From: Gemmatimonadota bacterium
GTDB lineage: Bacteria > Gemmatimonadota > Gemmatimonadetes > Gemmatimonadales > GWC2-71-9
Reading direction: 5' to 3'
NCBI GenBank assembly: GCA_039586365.1
Contig: JBDHKN010000082.1
Location: forward strand, 1 to 19,821
Length of the DNA stretch: 19,821 bases
The notes under the pieces were generated by a model. The model did no database searches and was not told the DNA's origin. It saw only the letters and a program-made list of their open reading frames with translations. Shown in pieces: positions 8,011 to 19,821 of this stretch (positions are counted from its first letter, which is position 1; each line of letters begins with the position of its first letter). A program made the translations under genes and the position numbers.

Positions 8011-8544
8011 ATGTTTCCCATCTGCAAGACGGCCGGTTGGAGCCTGGCCGTACTACCTGTCTTACTGCTGGCCGTAGTAGCGGCGCGACCGCAACAGACC
8101 CCAATACTCGCTTATGTGGACAGCGATCAGATTATTCAACAGATGCCGGGATACGCCGCAGCCGACTCGACTTTCCAGAATGAGTCAGAGGTGTGGCGCA
8201 CGGAGCTGCAACAGCTCCAGACGACCCTCGACTCGGCAGTCCGCGCCTTCGACCAAGAGTCCCTTGCTCTATCAGATTCTGTGCGCGACCAGAGGATGGA
8301 GGAGCTACAGCAAATGAGTCGGCTGGTCCAACAACGCAATACCGAGTTGTCACAACGTGCGGAGAGCCGCTGGGCCGAACTGGTCTTGCCGCTGCGGGAA
8401 CGGGGGCGCGCCGTGATCGATGGACTGCGGGCCGAGCGCAACCTGGCATTGGTGTTCGACATCAACGCCCCAGGTATAGTGTCCATCGACCCTGCGCTGG
8501 ACCTGACAGCGGTCGTGCTGAGTCGGCTCCGCGGCAGCGACTGA
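8011..8544 (+). CDS. OmpH/Skp family periplasmic chaperone
   Basis: Signal peptide, LAYVDSDQIIQQMPG, long helical core, LVFD and DLTAVVLSRL at the C-terminus; GGAG upstream of ATG 8011. Confidence 0.88.
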   Translation: MFPICKTAGWSLAVLPVLLLAVVAARPQQTPILAYVDSDQIIQQMPGYAAADSTFQNESEVWRTELQQLQTTLDSAVRAFDQESLALSDSVRDQRMEELQQMSRLVQQRNTELSQRAESRWAELVLPLRERGRAVIDGLRAERNLALVFDINAPGIVSIDPALDLTAVVLSRLRGSD

Positions 8545-8859
8545 CGAGGCCCTGGTCGAAGGACCCGTGTCAGCCGGCCCCTGACCAACAGGGGTGCCTT
8601 GCCCTTGCGGTCGGCGTCGGGGGTGAAGGCAACCCCGAGAGGCACGATGGCCTTCAGCGGTCCTTTCATATTAAGAAGTTTACAGTTAATAACTTACGGC
8701 CCTGTTTTCGAGTTTTACATGAGGTCGTAATTAGTGGCCATACGCGCCTTGCGCGGTTGCCGCCTCGCCGCAAGGGGTCCTCGAGCCCTGAACCAAAATC
8801 TTGCCACCCCTGGCAATCAGGGATAGCTTCGGCATCCCTCCTTGAATAGAGAGCGCGCC

Positions 8860-9096
8860 GTGCCAGAGCCATCTTATGACGTCATGTTCACCCGAGACGA
8901 GCGCCGGGCGATTCGCCATATGCTGAACTCGCACGAGAAATCGCCCTCTTGTCCGCGCTGTGAAAGCCCGCTCGTAGTCAATGGAGGAATGGCCGGTAGC
9001 GGCTATCAGATGTTGCACGTGCGCTGCCAGCCGTGCTACCGGACAGCCTTCGTGGGTGAACTCCCAGGCGATCACTGGGCCAACCCCAACCAGTAG
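8860..9096 (+). CDS. Small CxxC-x24-CxxC putative zinc-ribbon protein, paralog 1
   Basis: CPRC...CQPC; aligns with three other ORFs in the window; GTG start after AGAGAG (start uncertain). Confidence 0.75.
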   Translation: MPEPSYDVMFTRDERRAIRHMLNSHEKSPSCPRCESPLVVNGGMAGSGYQMLHVRCQPCYRTAFVGELPGDHWANPNQ

Positions 9097-11678: not shown

Positions 11679-12064
11679 GTCGCGCGTAACACGCTCCTTT
11701 CGCATCTTCAGCGGAAGCAGACAACAAGCCAACCTTCAACCTACAACGGGCTCATCGATTGGGTAGTGTGTACGGCGTCACGCAGCTGCGTGGTGGGGCA
11801 CAATCGATCTCGGCGACGGCCAGCGACAGGTCTGACTCGACCGAGCGGCCAAGACACCGGGCCCAGCTGCCAATAACAGGAGGTACTGCGTCGTGTAGGG
11901 CGTTCCTGCTACGTGGCTGGAATCTCGTCGTGAGGGGCAAGCGGGATCAGACATCCCGGCCCTGCACACCGGCAGTCCAGCCGGCAGGTCGGAATCGCCT
12001 CAGCGGCAGCGGTAGCCAAGGGTAGGAAACTGCCGGCAGCGCTGCGGTGTATCAAAAAGTTTGT

Positions 12065-12280
12065 ATGGCAGCCCGCGATTCCATCACACCCGTCACGTTC
12101 TCCCGTGAAGAAATCCGGCTGATCCGGGAAATGGTCGGCACTCCGGAAGGAGCCTCTGTCTGCCCGAGATGTGGCGGCAAGCTCCAGGTGATTGGACCTG
12201 AGGGCGGTGGTACCCTGCCTACCGTGTGGCATGTGGAGTGTCTCCCGTGCCGTCGTGCGGCCTTCATTTCCGGTTCGTAG
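12065..12280 (+). CDS. Small putative zinc-ribbon protein, paralog 2
   Basis: FSREEIRLIREMV...CPRC...WHVECLPCRRAAFI. Confidence 0.75.
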   Translation: MAARDSITPVTFSREEIRLIREMVGTPEGASVCPRCGGKLQVIGPEGGGTLPTVWHVECLPCRRAAFISGS

Positions 12281-12363
12281 TCACGCGGCCACAGAACGAG
12301 ACCGGCTGTTCCCGCAGTCCTCGCACCATTGTGACTACGGGCAAAACAGCGCAACTTATCATC

Positions 12364-12597
12364 GTGCCGGACACACCACTCCCGTTCTCCCCCAAGGAAG
12401 TCGATCAGATCCGCGAGATGCTGAGCACCTCGAGGGAGCCTCCCAAGTGCCTGCTATGTGGAACTGAACTCCAAATGACCGAGTCACGCGGCGGCGGTGA
12501 GGCGAGTCGCGTGTGGCGCGTGGATTGCGCTTCCTGTCATCGCACAGCGATCATCGCGGAAACCGGTGGCCAGCGCCCGACTAGGCACGACGAGTAG
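12364..12597 (+). CDS. Small putative zinc-ribbon protein, paralog 3
   Basis: FSPKEVDQIREML...CLLC...WRVDCASCHRTAII; GTG start chosen by alignment with the paralogs. Confidence 0.72.
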   Translation: MPDTPLPFSPKEVDQIREMLSTSREPPKCLLCGTELQMTESRGGGEASRVWRVDCASCHRTAIIAETGGQRPTRHDE

Positions 12598-13489: not shown

Positions 13490-13702
13490 ATGTTCTCCCG
13501 CAACGAGATCAAAGTGATCCGTCACATGCTGGACTCGTGGGAGAAACCACCAGTCTGTCCCCACTGCCAGAGTGCGCTCGATATCCGAGGAGGCGGTGCA
13601 GGCAGCGGGTACCGGATGTTGCATGTGCGCTGCCGATCCTGCCACCGAGTGGCCTTCATTACGGAGTCCACAGGCGACAGCTGTCCCGATCCCGGCGGGT
13701 AA
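13490..13702 (+). CDS. Small putative zinc-ribbon protein, paralog 4
   Basis: FSRNEIKVIRHML...CPHC...AGSGYRMLHVRCRSCHRVAFI; most similar to paralog 1. Confidence 0.75.
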   Translation: MFSRNEIKVIRHMLDSWEKPPVCPHCQSALDIRGGGAGSGYRMLHVRCRSCHRVAFITESTGDSCPDPGG

Positions 13703-13767: not shown

Positions 13768-16452
13768 CTATTCCCACCTGAGGGCTTCCATCGGATCAAC
13801 CGCTGCGGCCCGCCGCGCTGGAAGGTAGCTGGCCAGTAGAACCACACTCAGGAGCAGCAGCGAGACCGCTCCGTAGGTCGCCAGGTCAACCGGGCCCACT
13901 CCGAAGAGCAGAGCGGCGATTAGGTGCGTGAAGCCGACCGCTGCCACGAGGCCTATCGCCAAGCCTGCGGCTCCCACCACGCCACCCTGGCGGAGCACCA
14001 ATCCGCGTACGTCCTCACGTCGCGCACCGAGGGCCAGCCGAATCCCCATCTCACGAGTGCGCTGAGCCACCGTGTAGGAGATCACACCGTACACTCCAAC
14101 CATTCCCAGAATCAGCGCAACAGCCGCTGCGATGCCGAGCATGACCAGGGTGAAAGACGTCCGGGACAGTGAGGCCGCGAGTATCTCATCCAACGTCATG
14201 ACCTGCGAAACCGGTAGGTCGGAGTTGACCGACCAGACCGCTTCCCTGATCTGGGGCAGCAGCCCCCGAGGATTCCGCAGGGACGTCCGAATGGCGTAGC
14301 GCAGATCCCGCATGACGTAGTCCTGGATACTCCAGAACCTGTCCATATACATGGGCCAATAGACCACCGACGGAGGATCTTCGGCCACACCCGTGACGTG
14401 CACATCGCCTACTACCCCGACGATCTCCCGCCACGGGGCCGACCGGTTCTCCCTGATACGCCCGCCAATCGCCTTGGACGGGTCCCCCCAATACTCCCGC
14501 GCATAGTTCTCCGTTACCACCGCCACCGGCCGCTGCTCGAAGATGTCTGTCCACTCCAGGGATCTGCCGGCCAGGATGGGATTCTCGATGGTGGTGAAAT
14601 AGCCCGGAGTGATCCAGTTCATGCGCCTGAGAGGTTCCACCTCACCTTCGGTCACCGGGAACCCCTCCACTTCCAGGTCTTCCCACGAGTCCCAGTTGTC
14701 CATCGCCACTGAGGCCGCCGCGCTCGCAGATGTGACACCAGGTATCTGTACGATGTGCTCCAGTATCTGTTGATGGGTGCGGGCGGCATCCGCGCCGGTT
14801 GGTGCCTCGGACGCTGGAACCGAGAGACGCAGCGTGAGCACTTCCTGCGGCCGCTGGAATCCCGGCGGTACGCTCCGGAGACCCAGGAAGCTCCGGATCA
14901 TGAGACCCGAGCCAATCAGCAACACCAGAACCAGAGCGACCTGGGCTACAGCGAACACCGTTTGCATGCGGAATCGCCGCCGCCCGATACTGGAATTGCG
15001 GCCCGCCTCCTTGAGCGGCTCCACCAGGCCACTCCGCCCATAGGACATGACCGGGATGCTGCCGAACAGGAGGCCCGCCAGCACGGACACAGCCAGTGTG
15101 AAGAGGAGGGCGACAGGTTCAAGAGCAACGTCCTCTAACCGAGGCAGATTCGCGGGAGCCAGGTGCAGCAGGAGCCGAAGCCCGCCGGTGGCCAGTACCA
15201 GTCCTGCGGCACCCCCCAACAGCCCGATGAGGAGGCTCTCGGTGAGGAACTGGCGCGCCAGCCGACCCTTGGAGGCTCCCAGGGCGGTTCTGAGTGCCAC
15301 GTCTCGCTGTCGGCTCTCAGCCCGCACGAGGAACAGGTTGGCCACGTTGGTGCAGGCCACCAGCAGGACCAACGCCACAGTGCCGAAGACCACCCAGATC
15401 ACCCTACCCGCTGCACCAACCACGTCGTCCTTGAGCGGACGGACAAAGGTGCCGAATTCACGCGACTCCAGCACGGACAATGGGATGCCGCCGTATTCCT
15501 CACTGGCGAGAGCGGTCATGCTCTCCAGATCCCGCGTGGCATCCTCCACCGTGAAGCCCGGCCGCAGCCGGGCGATGCCGGGGAAGCTCCAATTCCCCAC
15601 GCTGACGCTGGCCCGGTCGAGGACCAGGGGAAGAAACAAGTCCGGGGATAGGCCGGCGAGTTTGAACCCTGCCGGCATGACACCGATGACGGTGCGGTCG
15701 GCACCGTCGATCCGAATGGTGCGACCTAACACGGCGGGATCGCTACCGAACCGCCGTGCCCAGTAACCCCGCGACAAGATCACCGGATAGCTGCTCTTAG
15801 GGGCCACGTCCTCGGCGGAGTATCCCCTCCCTAGGCTCGGATGCACCCCCAGGAGCGGAAACAGTCCGTCGGTCACTTGCAGGGCCGCTACCTGCTCAGG
15901 CTCGGCCAGGCCGGTTACCGTCACGGGAGCCCAGCGCCAGACGCCGATGTCTTCCACGGTCCGGGAGTGATCCCGGAAGGTCAAGTACAGCGCCGGCGAC
16001 AGCGGAGTCTCGGGGACTCCGATCCCGGGCATCGTGTGGTGGACCGCTACGAGCTCGTGGGAGTCCGGGAATGGCAGCGGTCTGAGCAGCACGCTGTTCA
16101 CCACGCTGAAGATCGCGGTGGTACCACCAATGCCCAGACTGAGCGTGAGTAGCACGATTGCCGTAAACGATGTACTCCTCAGCAGGCGGCGAACCGAGTG
16201 GCGGGCGTCTACGCTCAGGTCCTGCACCAGGCCCACTCCCCACGAATCCTGGGCGCGTTCCCTCGCCCGGAGGACACTGCCGAACTTGCTGAGCGCCTGG
16301 TGGCGAGCCTGTGTTGCGCTCATCCCCTGGCGCATGTGCTTTGCGGTCTCCTGCTCTATGTGGAACGCCATCTCTTCGTCCAGCTCCTCGCGCATCTTCC
16401 CCCAGTAGATGACGGCCCTCAGTCGAAATAGCAGGTTGGCGATCAAACGCAT
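13768..16452 (-). CDS. Duplicated MacB/FtsX-type ABC permease (ADOP family)
   Basis: 894 aa; ELDEEMAFH leader, LGIGGTTAIFSVVNSVLLRPLP, LVACTNVANLFL, QRTREMGIRLALGA, PARRAAAVDPMEALR; lies directly downstream of padR. Confidence 0.93.
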   Translation of the reverse strand: MRLIANLLFRLRAVIYWGKMREELDEEMAFHIEQETAKHMRQGMSATQARHQALSKFGSVLRARERAQDSWGVGLVQDLSVDARHSVRRLLRSTSFTAIVLLTLSLGIGGTTAIFSVVNSVLLRPLPFPDSHELVAVHHTMPGIGVPETPLSPALYLTFRDHSRTVEDIGVWRWAPVTVTGLAEPEQVAALQVTDGLFPLLGVHPSLGRGYSAEDVAPKSSYPVILSRGYWARRFGSDPAVLGRTIRIDGADRTVIGVMPAGFKLAGLSPDLFLPLVLDRASVSVGNWSFPGIARLRPGFTVEDATRDLESMTALASEEYGGIPLSVLESREFGTFVRPLKDDVVGAAGRVIWVVFGTVALVLLVACTNVANLFLVRAESRQRDVALRTALGASKGRLARQFLTESLLIGLLGGAAGLVLATGGLRLLLHLAPANLPRLEDVALEPVALLFTLAVSVLAGLLFGSIPVMSYGRSGLVEPLKEAGRNSSIGRRRFRMQTVFAVAQVALVLVLLIGSGLMIRSFLGLRSVPPGFQRPQEVLTLRLSVPASEAPTGADAARTHQQILEHIVQIPGVTSASAAASVAMDNWDSWEDLEVEGFPVTEGEVEPLRRMNWITPGYFTTIENPILAGRSLEWTDIFEQRPVAVVTENYAREYWGDPSKAIGGRIRENRSAPWREIVGVVGDVHVTGVAEDPPSVVYWPMYMDRFWSIQDYVMRDLRYAIRTSLRNPRGLLPQIREAVWSVNSDLPVSQVMTLDEILAASLSRTSFTLVMLGIAAAVALILGMVGVYGVISYTVAQRTREMGIRLALGARREDVRGLVLRQGGVVGAAGLAIGLVAAVGFTHLIAALLFGVGPVDLATYGAVSLLLLSVVLLASYLPARRAAAVDPMEALRWE

Positions 16453-16506
16453 GGTATGTCTCCCTCGTACGACGACTGCGCCGCGACGATGTGTGAGGCC
16501 GTCCGG

Positions 16507-16839
16507 TCAGGCCGTCGCCATGATGCGCCCGACCGCTGCGGCCAGGCGGTCCCAGTGCTCGGCCTCGATCCCCAGCCGCCGCTCCCCTGCCCGGGTCAGG
16601 GTGTAGTAGCGGGCCCGCCGGTTGTTCTGGGTCACCTCCCAGTACGACTTGATCCACCCCTCGCGGGTCAACTTGTGTAGCGAGGCGTAGAGCGAGCCTT
16701 GATTCACCTGGAGTTCGTCCCTGGAAATCTGCTGGATGCGTTCACTGATCCCCCATCCGTGCATCGCCTCCAGCGAGAGAACCTTGAGGATCAACATGTC
16801 CAGGGTTCCCTTGATCATGTCCGGCTTATTCCTGTCCAT
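16507..16839 (-). CDS. PadR family transcriptional regulator
   Basis: KGTLDMLILKVL, MHGWGI, GSLYASLHKL, RARYYTLT. Confidence 0.93.
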   Translation of the reverse strand: MDRNKPDMIKGTLDMLILKVLSLEAMHGWGISERIQQISRDELQVNQGSLYASLHKLTREGWIKSYWEVTQNNRRARYYTLTRAGERRLGIEAEHWDRLAAAVGRIMATA

Positions 16840-16895
16840 TGGTCCAATCCTGTGGGAATGATCTACTCCCGGTGGCCGAGCGGTCACACTCGCTT

Positions 16896-16912
16896 CTCTC
16901 GGTAATCAAGAG
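16896..16912. promoter_or_regulatory. Candidate PadR operator palindrome
   Basis: CTCTCG-N5-CAAGAG (one mismatch) 57 bp upstream of the padR start; function inferred. Confidence 0.4.
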
Positions 16913-16997
16913 GTGCTGTGGTATTTGATACCGAGGTTCGCGAAAAGGTTGTAGAGATCGCGACCCGGTCGGGGAGCAGGCGCTGCTATCAATAAGG

Positions 16998-17030
16998 ACT
17001 CCCGCAGCACGTGTGAGGTGTTGTGGGAGT
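16998..17030. terminator. Imperfect hairpin downstream of the distal tRNA fragment
   Basis: ACTCCCGCAGCAC / GTGTTGTGGGAGT 13-bp stem (two G-U pairs on +, two A-C mismatches on -), 7-nt loop; followed by CCTTATT on the minus strand. Confidence 0.45.
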
Positions 17031-17038
17031 ATGTCTTG

Positions 17039-17084
17039 TGGAGCGCCCGTCAGGACTCGAACCTACGACCCTCGGCTTAGAAGG
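17039..17084 (-). repeat. tRNA-Arg 3'-half fragment ending in CCA (att-like, distal)
   Basis: 17043-17084 matches tRNA 19607-19648 at 40/42 nt, from the anticodon loop to the acceptor stem, then TCCA. Confidence 0.92.
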
Positions 17085-17303
17085 GCGTGCCTGATTCGTG
17101 TCTCTTCGTACCCATTCGCGCTAATACGGTGTCATACGTGCTCATACGTTCACCACCACAGAACGTATGAACACGCATCGACACGTATGGAACCGTATGG
17201 TTCCGAATGGAAGTTCCACGGTCTGTTCCACAGTGAGGTAGAACCGACAACACCGCCCGGCGCGTGGCCGGGCGGTGCACTTCTGGCTGCAAGGACTAGT
17301 GGC
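17085..17303. repeat. Distal arm copy: inverted 10-bp-phased pentamer arrays, GTTCCAC direct repeat and hairpin
   Basis: About 90% identical without indels to 18687-18905 (about 21 differences in 219 nt). Confidence 0.9.
17251..17277 (-). terminator. Hairpin after cargo gene
   Basis: CACCGCCCGGC-N5-GCCGGGCGGTG perfect 11-bp stem about 26 nt after the stop; weak U tract. Confidence 0.6.
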
Positions 17304-17786
17304 TCAAGGCTGCTCTGGCTGAGGAAACGGTGCGTCGGAGTTCCATATATCCACCGTCCAGAGCCACGATCCGTCTGCTTGCTTTCGTGCAATCGAGACA
17401 TACTTGCCGGTAAATGTGATGGCTTCGGCCGAGTCTGCAGCCGCACCCGTCCACGACCAAGTCCCACGGTCAAACGCCAGGTCACCGTACCCATCGATTT
17501 CCAGCGAGGTAAGGGTGAATTCCTGAGGGGGTGGTTCTTCATCAGCAGCACATCCATCCCTCATGGCCGCCCGTCCCTCGACCGTCGGTTCGTCCTGAGG
17601 CAGCACAACAGCGTTATCAGCATACAACGCGATGCCAGCATCGCAGTCCCCCGCCAACGTCGCCTCGACGCCTGCGGCTCTCAACGCGTTCAGGGCTGCG
17701 ATGTCCTCGTCGGTCAGGGGAGCGACACCAGGTTGACAAGCGGCCAGAAAGGCCAGAGACAGTACGGCAAGTACGAGACGGCGCAT
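17304..17786 (-). CDS. NTF2-like (DUF4440/YybH/SnoaL-like) lipoprotein
   Basis: Lipobox FLAAC; YADNAVVLP..VEGRAA, GDLAFDRGTW, GKYVSIARKQADGSW..DIWNSD pattern; AAGGAGGG RBS. Confidence 0.88.
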   Translation of the reverse strand: MRRLVLAVLSLAFLAACQPGVAPLTDEDIAALNALRAAGVEATLAGDCDAGIALYADNAVVLPQDEPTVEGRAAMRDGCAADEEPPPQEFTLTSLEIDGYGDLAFDRGTWSWTGAAADSAEAITFTGKYVSIARKQADGSWLWTVDIWNSDAPFPQPEQP

Positions 17787-17881
17787 ACATCCCTCCTTGG
17801 GGTTTGGGAGGGCGACTCGAAGGGCGACCCAGCGAAACTACGTGCTGGACTGGGGCACAGTAAGACCACAGTGCCCAAACA

Positions 17882-17904
17882 CCGCCCAGCGATAGGCCGG
17901 GCGG
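17882..17904 (-). terminator. Hairpin after cargo gene
   Basis: On the minus strand CCGCCCGGC / GCTGGGCGG stem followed by TGTTT; related in sequence to the other two cargo hairpins. Confidence 0.55.
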
Positions 17905-17935
17905 AGCGGAAGGGGTGACGGCACGAGGAGGCTGG

Positions 17936-18421
17936 CTACATGGACTCGGGCGGCGGCAGATACGATTCGTGACCTTGGACAATCTTCCAGCCGTCCCCCG
18001 TGCGCTCCCAAACAGTCGTCCATACACCTCGCAGGGCCGTTTCTACCCCAGCGGTATCGACCCCTGCCCACTCGAAGCTGGCGGAGAACACGGCGGCGTC
18101 TGGGCCGAGGACATTCACGTGCGCGTCTCCCCAAGCGCCACTGGTCACTTCCCGGACCGAGGTAAACACACCACCCCATGCAGTTACCATGGAGTCTCGG
18201 TTGGTGCCGAGTACGCCATTCTCAGCCCACACGAAGTCGGAGCCGTAGGGCGCCATGAAACGGTCTACGTCAAGGTCTCTGAACGCTTCGAAGGCCTCAT
18301 CAGCCAGTCGGGTGACGGTGTCCCGAATCGCCACCCGTTCGGCGTCGGTGAGTTCGGTAGTGGCAGGTTGGCAGGCGGCCAGAAAGGCCAAGGACACGGC
18401 GGCAAGTGCGAGACGGCGCAT
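17936..18421 (-). CDS. NTF2-like (SnoaL/DUF4440) lipoprotein, divergent subfamily
   Basis: Lipobox FLAAC; VNVLGPDAAV and WTTVWERTGDGWKIVQGHES motifs; AAGGAGGG RBS. Confidence 0.88.
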   Translation of the reverse strand: MRRLALAAVSLAFLAACQPATTELTDAERVAIRDTVTRLADEAFEAFRDLDVDRFMAPYGSDFVWAENGVLGTNRDSMVTAWGGVFTSVREVTSGAWGDAHVNVLGPDAAVFSASFEWAGVDTAGVETALRGVWTTVWERTGDGWKIVQGHESYLPPPESM

Positions 18422-18643
18422 AGATCCCTCCTTTGGGTTTGGCAGCGCGACTCAGAGGGCGACGGAGCGAAACTAAGTCTCCGACTGCAACTCGGGAAGA
18501 CAACCATTTTGCCGCCTGCGGTGCATGGGCCCGGTGTGGCGTACCGCCGGGTGTTGTAGCTGGGCGGTGTGGTACCGCCGGGTGGACGGGATGGAGCCGC
18601 GGAGGTACCGCCCCGGCGCGGCGCGGGAAGGCGGGAGAAACGA
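18422..18643. repeat. Proximal arm/leader copy
   Basis: Roughly 80-85% identical to 19386-19605; its gene-proximal part also recurs at 17787-17866; three GTACCGCC motifs. Confidence 0.88.
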
Positions 18644-18686
18644 CGCGCCCGTCAGGACTCGAACCTACGACCCTCGGCTTAGAAGG
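18644..18686 (-). repeat. tRNA-Arg 3'-half fragment (att-like junction between modules)
   Basis: 41/43 match to 19606-19648. Confidence 0.92.
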
Positions 18687-18905
18687 GCGTGCCTGATTCG
18701 TGTCCATTCGTATCCATACGAACTAATACGGTGTCATACGTGCTCATACGTTCACCACCACAGAACATATGAACACGTATCGACACGTATGGAACCGTAC
18801 CGATCCGAATGGAGGTTCCACAGTCTGTTCCACAGTGAGGTAGAACCGACTACACCTCCCGGCGCGGGGCCGGGCGGTGTGCTCGTGGCTGCAAAGACTA
18901 GTGGC
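18687..18905. repeat. Distal arm copy: inverted 10-bp-phased pentamer arrays, GTTCCAC direct repeat and hairpin (18852-18880)
   Basis: Direct repeat of 17085-17303. Confidence 0.9.
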
Positions 18906-19385
18906 TCACGGCTGCTCTGGCTGAGGAAGCGGCGCGTCAAGGTTCCATATGAGCACCGTCCAAAGCCAGGAATCATCTGCTTGTTTCCGCGAGATCAAGA
19001 CATACTTGCCGGTGATCGTGAGGGGCTCTGCCACGTCCTCAGCGACAAACGTCTCAGACCAGGTCCCACGGTCAAACGCCAGATCACCGTACCCATCGAT
19101 TTGCAGCGAGGTAATGGTGAAATCCTGAATTGTAGCTTCTTCAGCCTCACATGCAGCTGTCATGGCCGCCCGTCCCTCAATCATGGGTCCGTCCTGAGGC
19201 AACAAGACAGCGTCCTCGGCAAGCATCGCGTTTGAGGCATCGCAGTCGCCCGCCAAGGTAGCCTGAATGTTTGCGGCTGTCAGATTGTTCAGGGCTGCGA
19301 TGTCCGCATCGGACAGGGGAGCTACACCAGGTTGGCAAGCGGCCAGAAAGGCCAGAGACAGTACGGACAGTGTGAGACGGCGCAT
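18906..19385 (-). CDS. NTF2-like (DUF4440/YybH/SnoaL-like) lipoprotein
   Basis: About 70% aa identical to 17304-17786; lipobox FLAAC; AAGGAGGG RBS. Confidence 0.88.
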   Translation of the reverse strand: MRRLTLSVLSLAFLAACQPGVAPLSDADIAALNNLTAANIQATLAGDCDASNAMLAEDAVLLPQDGPMIEGRAAMTAACEAEEATIQDFTITSLQIDGYGDLAFDRGTWSETFVAEDVAEPLTITGKYVLISRKQADDSWLWTVLIWNLDAPLPQPEQP

Positions 19386-19605
19386 ACACCCCTCCTTTGG
19401 GTTTGGGAGCGCGACTCGGAGGGCGACGGAGGGAAACTAAGTCTCCGACCGCAACTCGGAAAGACAACCGTTTACTGCCTGCGGTGCATGGGCCCGGTGC
19501 GGCGTACCGCCGGGCGTTGTGCTGGGCCGTGTGGTATCGCCAGGTGAACGGGATGGCGGGACGGAGGTACCGCCCCGGCGCGGTGTGGGGAGGCGGGGGA
19601 AACAA
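19386..19605. repeat. Proximal arm/leader copy
   Basis: Direct repeat of 18422-18643. Confidence 0.88.
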
Positions 19606-19679
19606 CGCGCCCGGTAGGACTCGAACCTACGACCCTCGGCTTAGAAGGCCGATGCTCTATCCAGCTGAGCTACGGGCGC
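19606..19679 (-). tRNA. tRNA-Arg(UCU)
   Basis: GCGCCCG TA GCTC AGCTGGATA GAGC A TCGGC CTTCTAA GCCGA GGGTC GTAGG TTCGAGT CCTAC CGGGCGC G folds into a full cloverleaf; anticodon TCT; CCA not encoded. Confidence 0.97.
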
Positions 19680-19821
19680 CAGCTCCGCAATTCGCTAATG
19701 CCAACCCCTTACGCAACCTCATTCCGTAGAACCTGCTCTTCCGCCTCTACCGTGGGGGCAATTTTGGTGGCACTTCTCAGTGGGCGTCACAGACCTCTCA
19801 TCTGCTTCCTCGCGGCCTCCA

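Follow-up and report, generated by a model that had tools for sequence, protein, structure and literature searches.

How a short run of small gene units without any recombinase came to be stacked behind one tRNA gene, and whether such units still move, is the question raised by contig JBDHKN010000082.1 of a Gemmatimonadota bacterium (assembly GCA_039586365.1, 5.4 Mb, 86% complete). The window analysed here is this whole contig of 19,821 nucleotides (nt), whose end lies 142 bp from a tRNA-Arg(TCT) gene. This gene (19606-19679, minus strand) is the only tRNA found by ARAGORN in the window, and the only Arg(TCT) copy among the 42 tRNAs of the 86%-complete assembly. Below, G- and L-numbers designate genomes and loci of relatives, C-numbers designate contigs, G000 is the source genome and C3 is the window. 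The balance tips modestly towards an island remnant that already lacked its integrase and one of its two arms, was doubled in place, and then had its cargo reshuffled by homologous recombination. The units are likely fixed in place rather than part of a working cassette system.

On the minus strand, the order is intact tRNA-Arg(TCT), arm A1, gene 1, arm B1, tRNA 3' half, arm A2, genes 2 and 3, arm B2 and a last 3' half. The two units measure 962 and 1602 bp, and each closes with an arm B and a tRNA 3' half starting from the anticodon loop, so that a tRNA gene and its displaced fragment are present in direct orientation. The copies of arm A are identical at 195 of 220 positions (88.6%) and those of arm B at 195 of 216 (90.3%). 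All three open reading frames (ORFs) encode proteins of the DUF4440/SnoaL (NTF2-like) type, and genes for integration or transfer are absent from the units. The 11 PF00589 matches of the genome all lie on other contigs, and a tblastn search of the window with four integrases gave a best E of only 0.33. The original prediction, made from the letters of this DNA, had proposed this layout, the lack of a recombinase and the start of tRNA identity at the anticodon loop, and these three points were borne out. The parts are as follows.

19680-19821, minus strand: likely the right-hand end of a distinct, larger element upstream that provides the tRNA 5' half; a 22-bp arm-like repeat lies at 19751-19772
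19606-19679, minus strand: intact tRNA-Arg(TCT) (ARAGORN); likely crossover core in the anticodon loop, 19641-19647
19386-19605, minus strand: arm A1, non-coding left flank ending in a lipoprotein leader and ribosome-binding site; 88.6% identical to arm A2, no family doublet
18906-19385, minus strand: gene 1, DUF4440/SnoaL lipoprotein of 159 aa (PF14534, E 5e-12)
18690-18905, minus strand: arm B1, made up of hairpin, doublet and a stretch of about 125 nt up to the core; 90.3% identical to arm B2, homologues in relatives
18851-18880, minus strand: GC-rich hairpin behind gene 1, likely terminator (-21.4 kcal/mol, 0 of 200 shuffles as good; absent from the terminator scan)
18817-18836, minus strand: arm doublet of unit 1, two direct 8-mers at a 12-bp period, likely integrase arm-type sites
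18644-18689, minus strand: middle tRNA-Arg 3' half, 46 nt, 93% identical; T-stem with G49-A65 and U50-G64
18422-18643, minus strand: arm A2, no family arm doublet
17936-18421, minus strand: gene 2, SnoaL_3/DUF4440 lipoprotein of 161 aa (PF13474, E 1e-10)
17787-17935, minus strand: spacer with a hairpin (17878-17907) and a second copy of the gene leader
17304-17786, minus strand: gene 3, DUF4440 lipoprotein of 160 aa, paralogue of gene 1 (PF14534, E 3e-12)
17088-17303, minus strand: arm B2, with hairpin (17249-17278), doublet and spacer; 90.3% identical to arm B1
17215-17234, minus strand: arm doublet of unit 2, from the matrix scan
17043-17087, minus strand: last tRNA-Arg 3' half, 45 nt, 93% identical; T-stem mismatch as in the middle half

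An Rfam scan placed the tRNA alone above its gathering score, and no sigma-70-like promoter was found within 16800-19821.

The link to integrative elements is provided by arm B, in which a GC-rich hairpin is followed by two direct 8-mers at a 12-bp period and, after about 125 nt, by the anticodon loop. With two mismatches allowed, this doublet pattern was found in 28 of 201 genomes of the family, against 4 for a reversed control; by inspection, 12 of the 30 fetched loci (two of them in the window) adjoin a tRNA gene or half, most of the others being chance matches in genes. For an independent check, one neighbouring integrase (PF00589; PHROG integrase) served as query and was present in 18 of the 201 family genomes. 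The 21 loci scanned out of 22 matches, the N-terminal half of one split gene being omitted, were scored with a doublet matrix trained on far arms alone. A doublet faces the integrase C-terminus at 11 of these 21 loci and at none of 21 control stretches inside genes, and a tRNA call lies within 500 bp at 10 of the 11. One of the 11 is the C116 copy of the source genome itself and another comes from the unpublished genome G458, without which the count becomes 10 of 20. The island anatomy deduced from these loci is an intact tRNA, a doublet and the integrase end, followed by cargo, a second doublet and a tRNA half; the integrase targets seen are Met/Ile2, Lys, Leu and a SeC call. With a doublet about 125-145 nt ahead of a tRNA half starting at the anticodon loop, the window's units fit the island family defined in this way. 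Arm B is therefore likely the attachment (att) arm of a PF00589 integrase family, to which it is assigned by co-occurrence with the integrase loci, and its doublet likely represents arm-type binding sites, as predicted from their position and by analogy with lambda-type integrases. The proposed origin from tyrosine-integrase elements crossing over in the anticodon loop is supported by this comparison.

Arm A, which had been presented together with arm B as a conserved end, gives a different picture. Its doublet-matrix score is at shuffle level (-8.2 and -0.9 with the far-arm-trained matrix) in a scan that covers the doublet of this family, sites of another family being outside its reach. Homology among all fetched loci is limited to the last 50-65 nt, which is the lipoprotein leader, and a search of five related genomes gave a best E of 0.075. 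A three-repeat pattern drawn from arm A occurred in 3 of 301 genomes, where the two matches besides its own are simple 8-mer repeats. A role of arm A as a second att arm is not supported by these searches. The junction between tRNA and arm A is common to both units (88.6% identity), which argues that the integrase-side arm, absent from both, was lost only once.

The tRNA halves provide a further constraint. Their identity to the intact tRNA begins at the anticodon stem-loop, and the three junction types have in common just the anticodon loop region. The two halves are identical, and their T-stem forms 4 of 5 pairs (mismatch G49-A65), whereas all five pairs form in each of the 16 intact Arg(TCT) genes compared; the corresponding energies are -2.3 and -4.5 kcal/mol. 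Under any model, this shared change needs gene conversion or a 7-bp crossover, and it dates homogenisation, not origin. Excision at the loop of unit 1, or of both units, would pass the mismatch to the only Arg(TCT) gene of the assembly, and excision of unit 2 would carry it along. The CCA triplet that had been noted with the last half is preceded by a T, in the position that the discriminator G occupies in the gene; CCA is encoded neither by the intact gene nor by the tRNA genes of G002 and G007, and its presence here is probably due to chance.

The cargo was analysed at the level of both sequence and divergence. The three ORFs belong to a family with 21 members in this genome and all show a lipoprotein-type signal peptide on reading of the sequence, the LPAM_1 score of relatives being just under cut-off; the two lipoproteins scanned against PHROGs (genes 1 and 2) matched none. 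Genes 1 and 3 share 80.0% DNA identity (dS 0.45, dN 0.17) within one 801-bp repeat that also includes arm B, and gene 2 is 89.5% identical to its orthologue at L096 (dN 0.046, dS 0.36). The variable cargo originally described was thus overstated for the window itself, although other cargo is indeed found on arm B in relatives. The arms diverge by 10-11% while dS between genes 1 and 3 is 0.45, and arm B diverges from its L096 counterpart by 7% while dS of gene 2 is 0.36; on these figures the arms would be younger than the adjoining cargo, or else strongly constrained. With 82.7% identity and a dS of 0.34, the L097 gene, located at a tRNA-Met end, is a closer match to gene 1 than gene 3 is. Leader 1 is 91.7% identical to leader 2 and 81.7% to leader 3, whereas the signal peptide of gene 1 is 91.2% identical to that of gene 3 and 84.2% to that of gene 2. 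Near the start codon, the resemblance of unit 1 thus changes from gene 2 to gene 3.

This combination of conserved ends and exchanged contents can be extended to related genomes. A sequence model of arm B matched in 8 of 150 family genomes, in 3 of 5 genomes of genus g118, in 5 of 8 genomes of the window's own genus at E 0.01, some of them by the hairpin alone, and in 1 of 150 genomes of the class, namely its own, with 16 candidates scored per genome. The strict two-part arm B pattern was confined to the window's own genome among 401 genomes of the order, and the strict doublet pattern returned two metagenome and two GTDB loci; one viral locus was set aside as a chance match since it lies inside a coding frame. 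Relatives of the family integrase or of gene 3 were not found in viral contigs, so that a phage parent is neither shown nor excluded. Among 25 arm-like loci outside the window (one hairpin-only match having been dropped), an exact tRNA match of at least 13 nt was present downstream in 17, one of which is an intact tRNA-Ser, and upstream in none; a DUF4440-type gene lies upstream at 14. These counts lean upward, as five of the loci trained the arm model, four proteins trained the gene profile, and the hairpin of the model favours the lipoprotein family.

The arm-B-like ends are found, among other targets, at 3' halves of Met, Arg, Ala and Ile2 and at 5' halves of Ile2 and Lys, and a decay series can be followed among them. 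In G003, a tRNA-Met is followed by an integrase remnant of another type, cargo, a lipoprotein gene, arm B and an interrupted half; one-armed units are found in G443 (a 0.9-kb lipoprotein unit on the 5' side of tRNA-Ile2) and in G095 (0.94 kb, a RelE-type toxin-antitoxin pair at tRNA-Phe); truncated or interrupted ends appear in G489, G470 and L096. At L096, a gene 3-like gene, gene 2, arm B and a decayed Arg half form an order unlike that of the window, and G489, with about 10 arm-linked ends, carries an unrelated lipoprotein gene and arm B behind an Arg half. Genes like gene 1 and like the pair 2-3 are present in G006 at a locus without tRNA or arm B. Gene order, cargo and targets thus differ between relatives, contrary to the single fixed layout that would have spoken for one old duplication of a decayed island. 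The predicted recurrence of the arms around other cargo was confirmed for arm B, which also flanks other tRNAs, and failed for arm A, found nowhere else among the loci and genomes searched. Sites of tRNA-Arg(TCT) lacking these units, in line with the empty sites anticipated, were seen in two other species of the genus (G002 and G007, over the 1-1.5 kb viewed).

Three side observations concern the same ends. L153 (G443:C75) and L163 (G470:C266), from two species, share the same truncated Met-type right end and a like downstream flank with different upstream genes, which suggests an exchange of cargo at an inherited end. The single-contig genome G006 contains two tRNA-Arg(TCT) 3' halves 255 kb apart (C1:1538435 and 1794029), and two pattern searches did not find an intact tRNA-Arg(TCT) gene in those of its bases that were available. 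Lastly, tRNA halves whose T-loop is split by a short GC-rich hairpin insert, or behind which the T-arm end appears a second time, can be observed at L050:8001-8124 (G003), L155 (G452) and G000:C51:726-885.

On the basis of these data, the following course is proposed. An island of the Gemmatimonadota PF00589 family would have integrated at the anticodon loop, and a single deletion would then have taken its integrase together with the integrase-side doublet, setting the lipoprotein leader (arm A) behind the tRNA. The resulting unit would have been doubled in place by means of the tRNA-half repeats, the two right ends being made alike later or concurrently. Homologous recombination between the conserved leader and the hairpin would have reshuffled the cargo, unit 1 combining the leader of gene 2 with a body of the gene 1/3 type. 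The units would persist through purifying selection on the lipoproteins and through the weakened T-stem that excision would leave in the tRNA. RecA-mediated hybrids in tandem arrays of ICEs (integrative and conjugative elements) have been described for SXT/R391 (PMC5812530).

A competing account regards the units as minimal non-autonomous cassettes, integrated successively and still moved in trans by the family integrase. It draws on the good conservation of arm B, on the recurrence of the module of gene, hairpin, doublet and tRNA half at several tRNAs, on the existence of a two-armed, integrase-free unit of 1.7 kb (G002:C185), and on two contigs of one study (records 15 and 26) in which arm B and the half follow unlike DNA upstream of the hairpin. 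It is further favoured by a cognate integrase that the same genome carries at tRNA-Lys (C116) and tRNA-Ile2/Met (C30), its doublet being nearly identical. However, the C116 copy is missing its final catalytic segment and the C30 copy is truncated at the start of its contig; arm A has no integrase-side doublet; and on excision the mismatched T-stem would either pass to the sole Arg(TCT) gene or leave with the unit. Neither a circular arm B-tRNA half-arm A junction, as had been predicted, nor a same-species empty-site joint was seen in contigs of six runs from four studies, contigs being prone to drop rare forms. The joints found at the tRNA in public contigs had intervening letters and stem from unrelated tRNAs, and one X4 contig (4 differences) continues with 33 unlike letters beyond the last half, which favours neither account. 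With the shared left junction and T-stem mismatch also speaking against independent cassettes, this account appears unlikely. The bolder version, a lineage-specific system in which one promiscuous integrase family would move minimal units needing just the anticodon stem-loop and a single doublet, at five or more tRNA species and in either orientation, and would thereby drive the expansion and shuffling of DUF4440 lipoproteins, is decidedly doubtful. Improbable too is a scenario in which a remnant with two genes was duplicated once in place, long ago, and afterwards merely lost gene 2 from its first copy, with promoter and terminator selection or conversion keeping the arms alike and no exchange of cargo. 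The continuous 801-bp repeat across genes 1/3 and arm B, the switch point between leader and signal peptide, which fits a deletion between leader repeats, the gene 2-3 order in G006 and the common tree group of genes 1 and 3 all agree with it. It would nevertheless imply that a non-coding stretch of about 430 bp is conserved roughly three times as strongly as synonymous sites, and is at odds with the greater proximity of gene 1 to the L097 gene and with the other gene order on the same arm at L096. An assembly artefact or a chance repeat is hardly credible, even with a contig ending so close to the tRNA in an incomplete assembly: the copies differ by 10-20%, and runs of other studies contain closely matching pieces (98-100%) of arm A1, arm A2 and arm B, from both units, although the whole array is spanned by no record.

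Several observations also weigh against the proposed remnant, doubled in place and reshuffled. Trees of nine lipoprotein genes place genes 1, 3, L097 and L002 in one group without showing 1 and 3 to be sisters, so that the support for cargo swapping comes from distances. The T-stem change needs conversion or the 7-bp crossover here as well, and the mismatch by itself therefore does not exclude separate integration. The own-genome integrases and the two records with unlike DNA, mentioned above, count on the same side. One-armed units of 0.9-1.0 kb exist in three genera (the window, G443 and G095), a size more regular than random decay might give. A need for both arms is known from lambda-type integrases rather than from this family. 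Finally, neither a family integrase at Arg(TCT) nor a complete parent island there was found among the loci scanned; in the complete genomes G006, G166 and G178, the far end of a two-ended parent was absent within 20-40 kb.

The intact tRNA itself may have been assembled from two sides. A tRNA-Arg 5' half of 43 nt, 100% identical and ending at the anticodon loop, is located at C87:91108-91150 after a cysteine synthase gene, the kind of gene that lies next upstream of tRNA-Arg in G007. C87 also carries the 22-bp arm-like repeat of 19751-19772, with 20 of 22 positions identical, and no contig-end overlap of C3 with C87 or C50 was found. The 5' half is likely the contribution of a larger element that came into this core from the opposite side, its middle being unassembled and the join of C87 to C3 presumed. 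A 10-residue frame at the C3 end was not called an integrase, as it matches none of nine integrase C-termini from this genome with which it was compared.

Other sites of the same genome deserve mention. The integrase copies at C116:1-762 and C30:1-240 are identical over 100 nt at different tRNAs (Lys and Ile2/Met), a sign of recent target switching. A cleaner mini-element, resembling a cis-mobilizable element (CIME), is the 776-bp unit at G000:C30:357-1132, which is bounded on one side by a tRNA-Ile2/Met(CAT) 5' half (41 nt, 100%) and on the other by the intact gene. Arm-like doublets of a different type mark its two ends, and it contains neither an integrase nor an ORF of at least 70 aa. Many further tRNA fragments (Trp three times, Ala, Asn, Lys, Pro and Phe) and one more partial arm B are found at C51:726-779, 8181-8216 and 26117-26150, C56:2176-2220, C75:167-210, C37, C8, C94, C125 and C29:5273-5409. 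Judging from such fragments, the source genome is rich in island remnants. Directly behind the array, a PadR regulator and, after it, an 894-aa FtsX/MacB permease are encoded at 13768-16818 (minus strand). Four small paralogous CxxC (zinc-ribbon-like) ORFs lie on the plus strand at 8842-9096, 12047-12280, 12226-12597 and 13490-13702, and similar ORFs surround both tRNA-Arg halves of G006.

Among known systems, integron cassette arrays also consist of short, tandem, recombinase-free gene units. The junctions of the present array are instead tRNA halves with phage-type arms, and each of its genes comes with a leader and hairpin of its own; no IntI exceeded the cut-off in the 86%-complete assembly (TIGR02249, best 86 bits against a cut-off of 265), and the integron-like interpretation is not supported. 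The array resembles CIMEs, tandem accretion and the Dehalococcoides ssrA islands. CIMEs and the tandem accretion of ICESt1/ICESt3 (PMC5704250) concern integrase-less islands stacked at one tRNA att site and derived from integrase-bearing elements. The present units are likewise integrase-less and stacked at such a site, with the far att arm (core and doublet) kept and no integration or transfer genes. CIMEs by definition keep both attL and attR, whereas the array has the core but no doublet on the integrase side, its units are below 2 kb, and they are homologous copies rather than unrelated elements; in the strict sense, the missing arm places the array outside the CIMEs. The ssrA islands (PMC3146451) are tandem, bounded by repeats of the small-RNA gene end, with 15 lacking an integration module and some perhaps now fixed. 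They carry paralogues of one expanded family, rdhA, as the array does with its DUF4440 lipoproteins, and differ in having ssrA as target, serine recombinases and far larger units, instead of a tRNA anticodon loop and a tyrosine integrase family. Prochlorococcus tycheposons (bioRxiv 10.1101/2020.12.28.424599) have neighbouring elements parted by partial tRNAs, as here, and their remnants build islands at several tRNAs; the integrase and the replication or packaging modules of tycheposons have no counterpart in the array. Islander (PMC4383910) marks the ends of tDNA islands by a tRNA gene and its displaced fragment, reports that integrases often switch target, and requires an integrase and at least 2 kb. 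The array has the gene and the fragment but neither its own integrase nor this length, and therefore falls outside the definition.

A description of this Gemmatimonadota island family was not found in the literature, subscription papers and supplements being outside the scope of the search. Papers on Gemmatimonadota genomic islands with a tRNA integrase contained none on this system by title or abstract start, a search for non-autonomous integrative elements returned none, and papers on DUF4440/SnoaL lipoproteins showed nothing on this family. What is gained is a defined arm motif and a likely integrase family that targets the anticodon loops of several tRNAs from both sides, together with integrase-free units below 2 kb of the kind filtered out by the stated Islander requirements. 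Should one-armed units prove able to move in trans, they would represent an unusual and minimal kind of tyrosine-integrase substrate; taken as fixed remnants, they show nothing beyond the usual decay and stacking of islands. The array illustrates how the tRNA genes of an uncultured phylum collect paralogous surface-protein genes.

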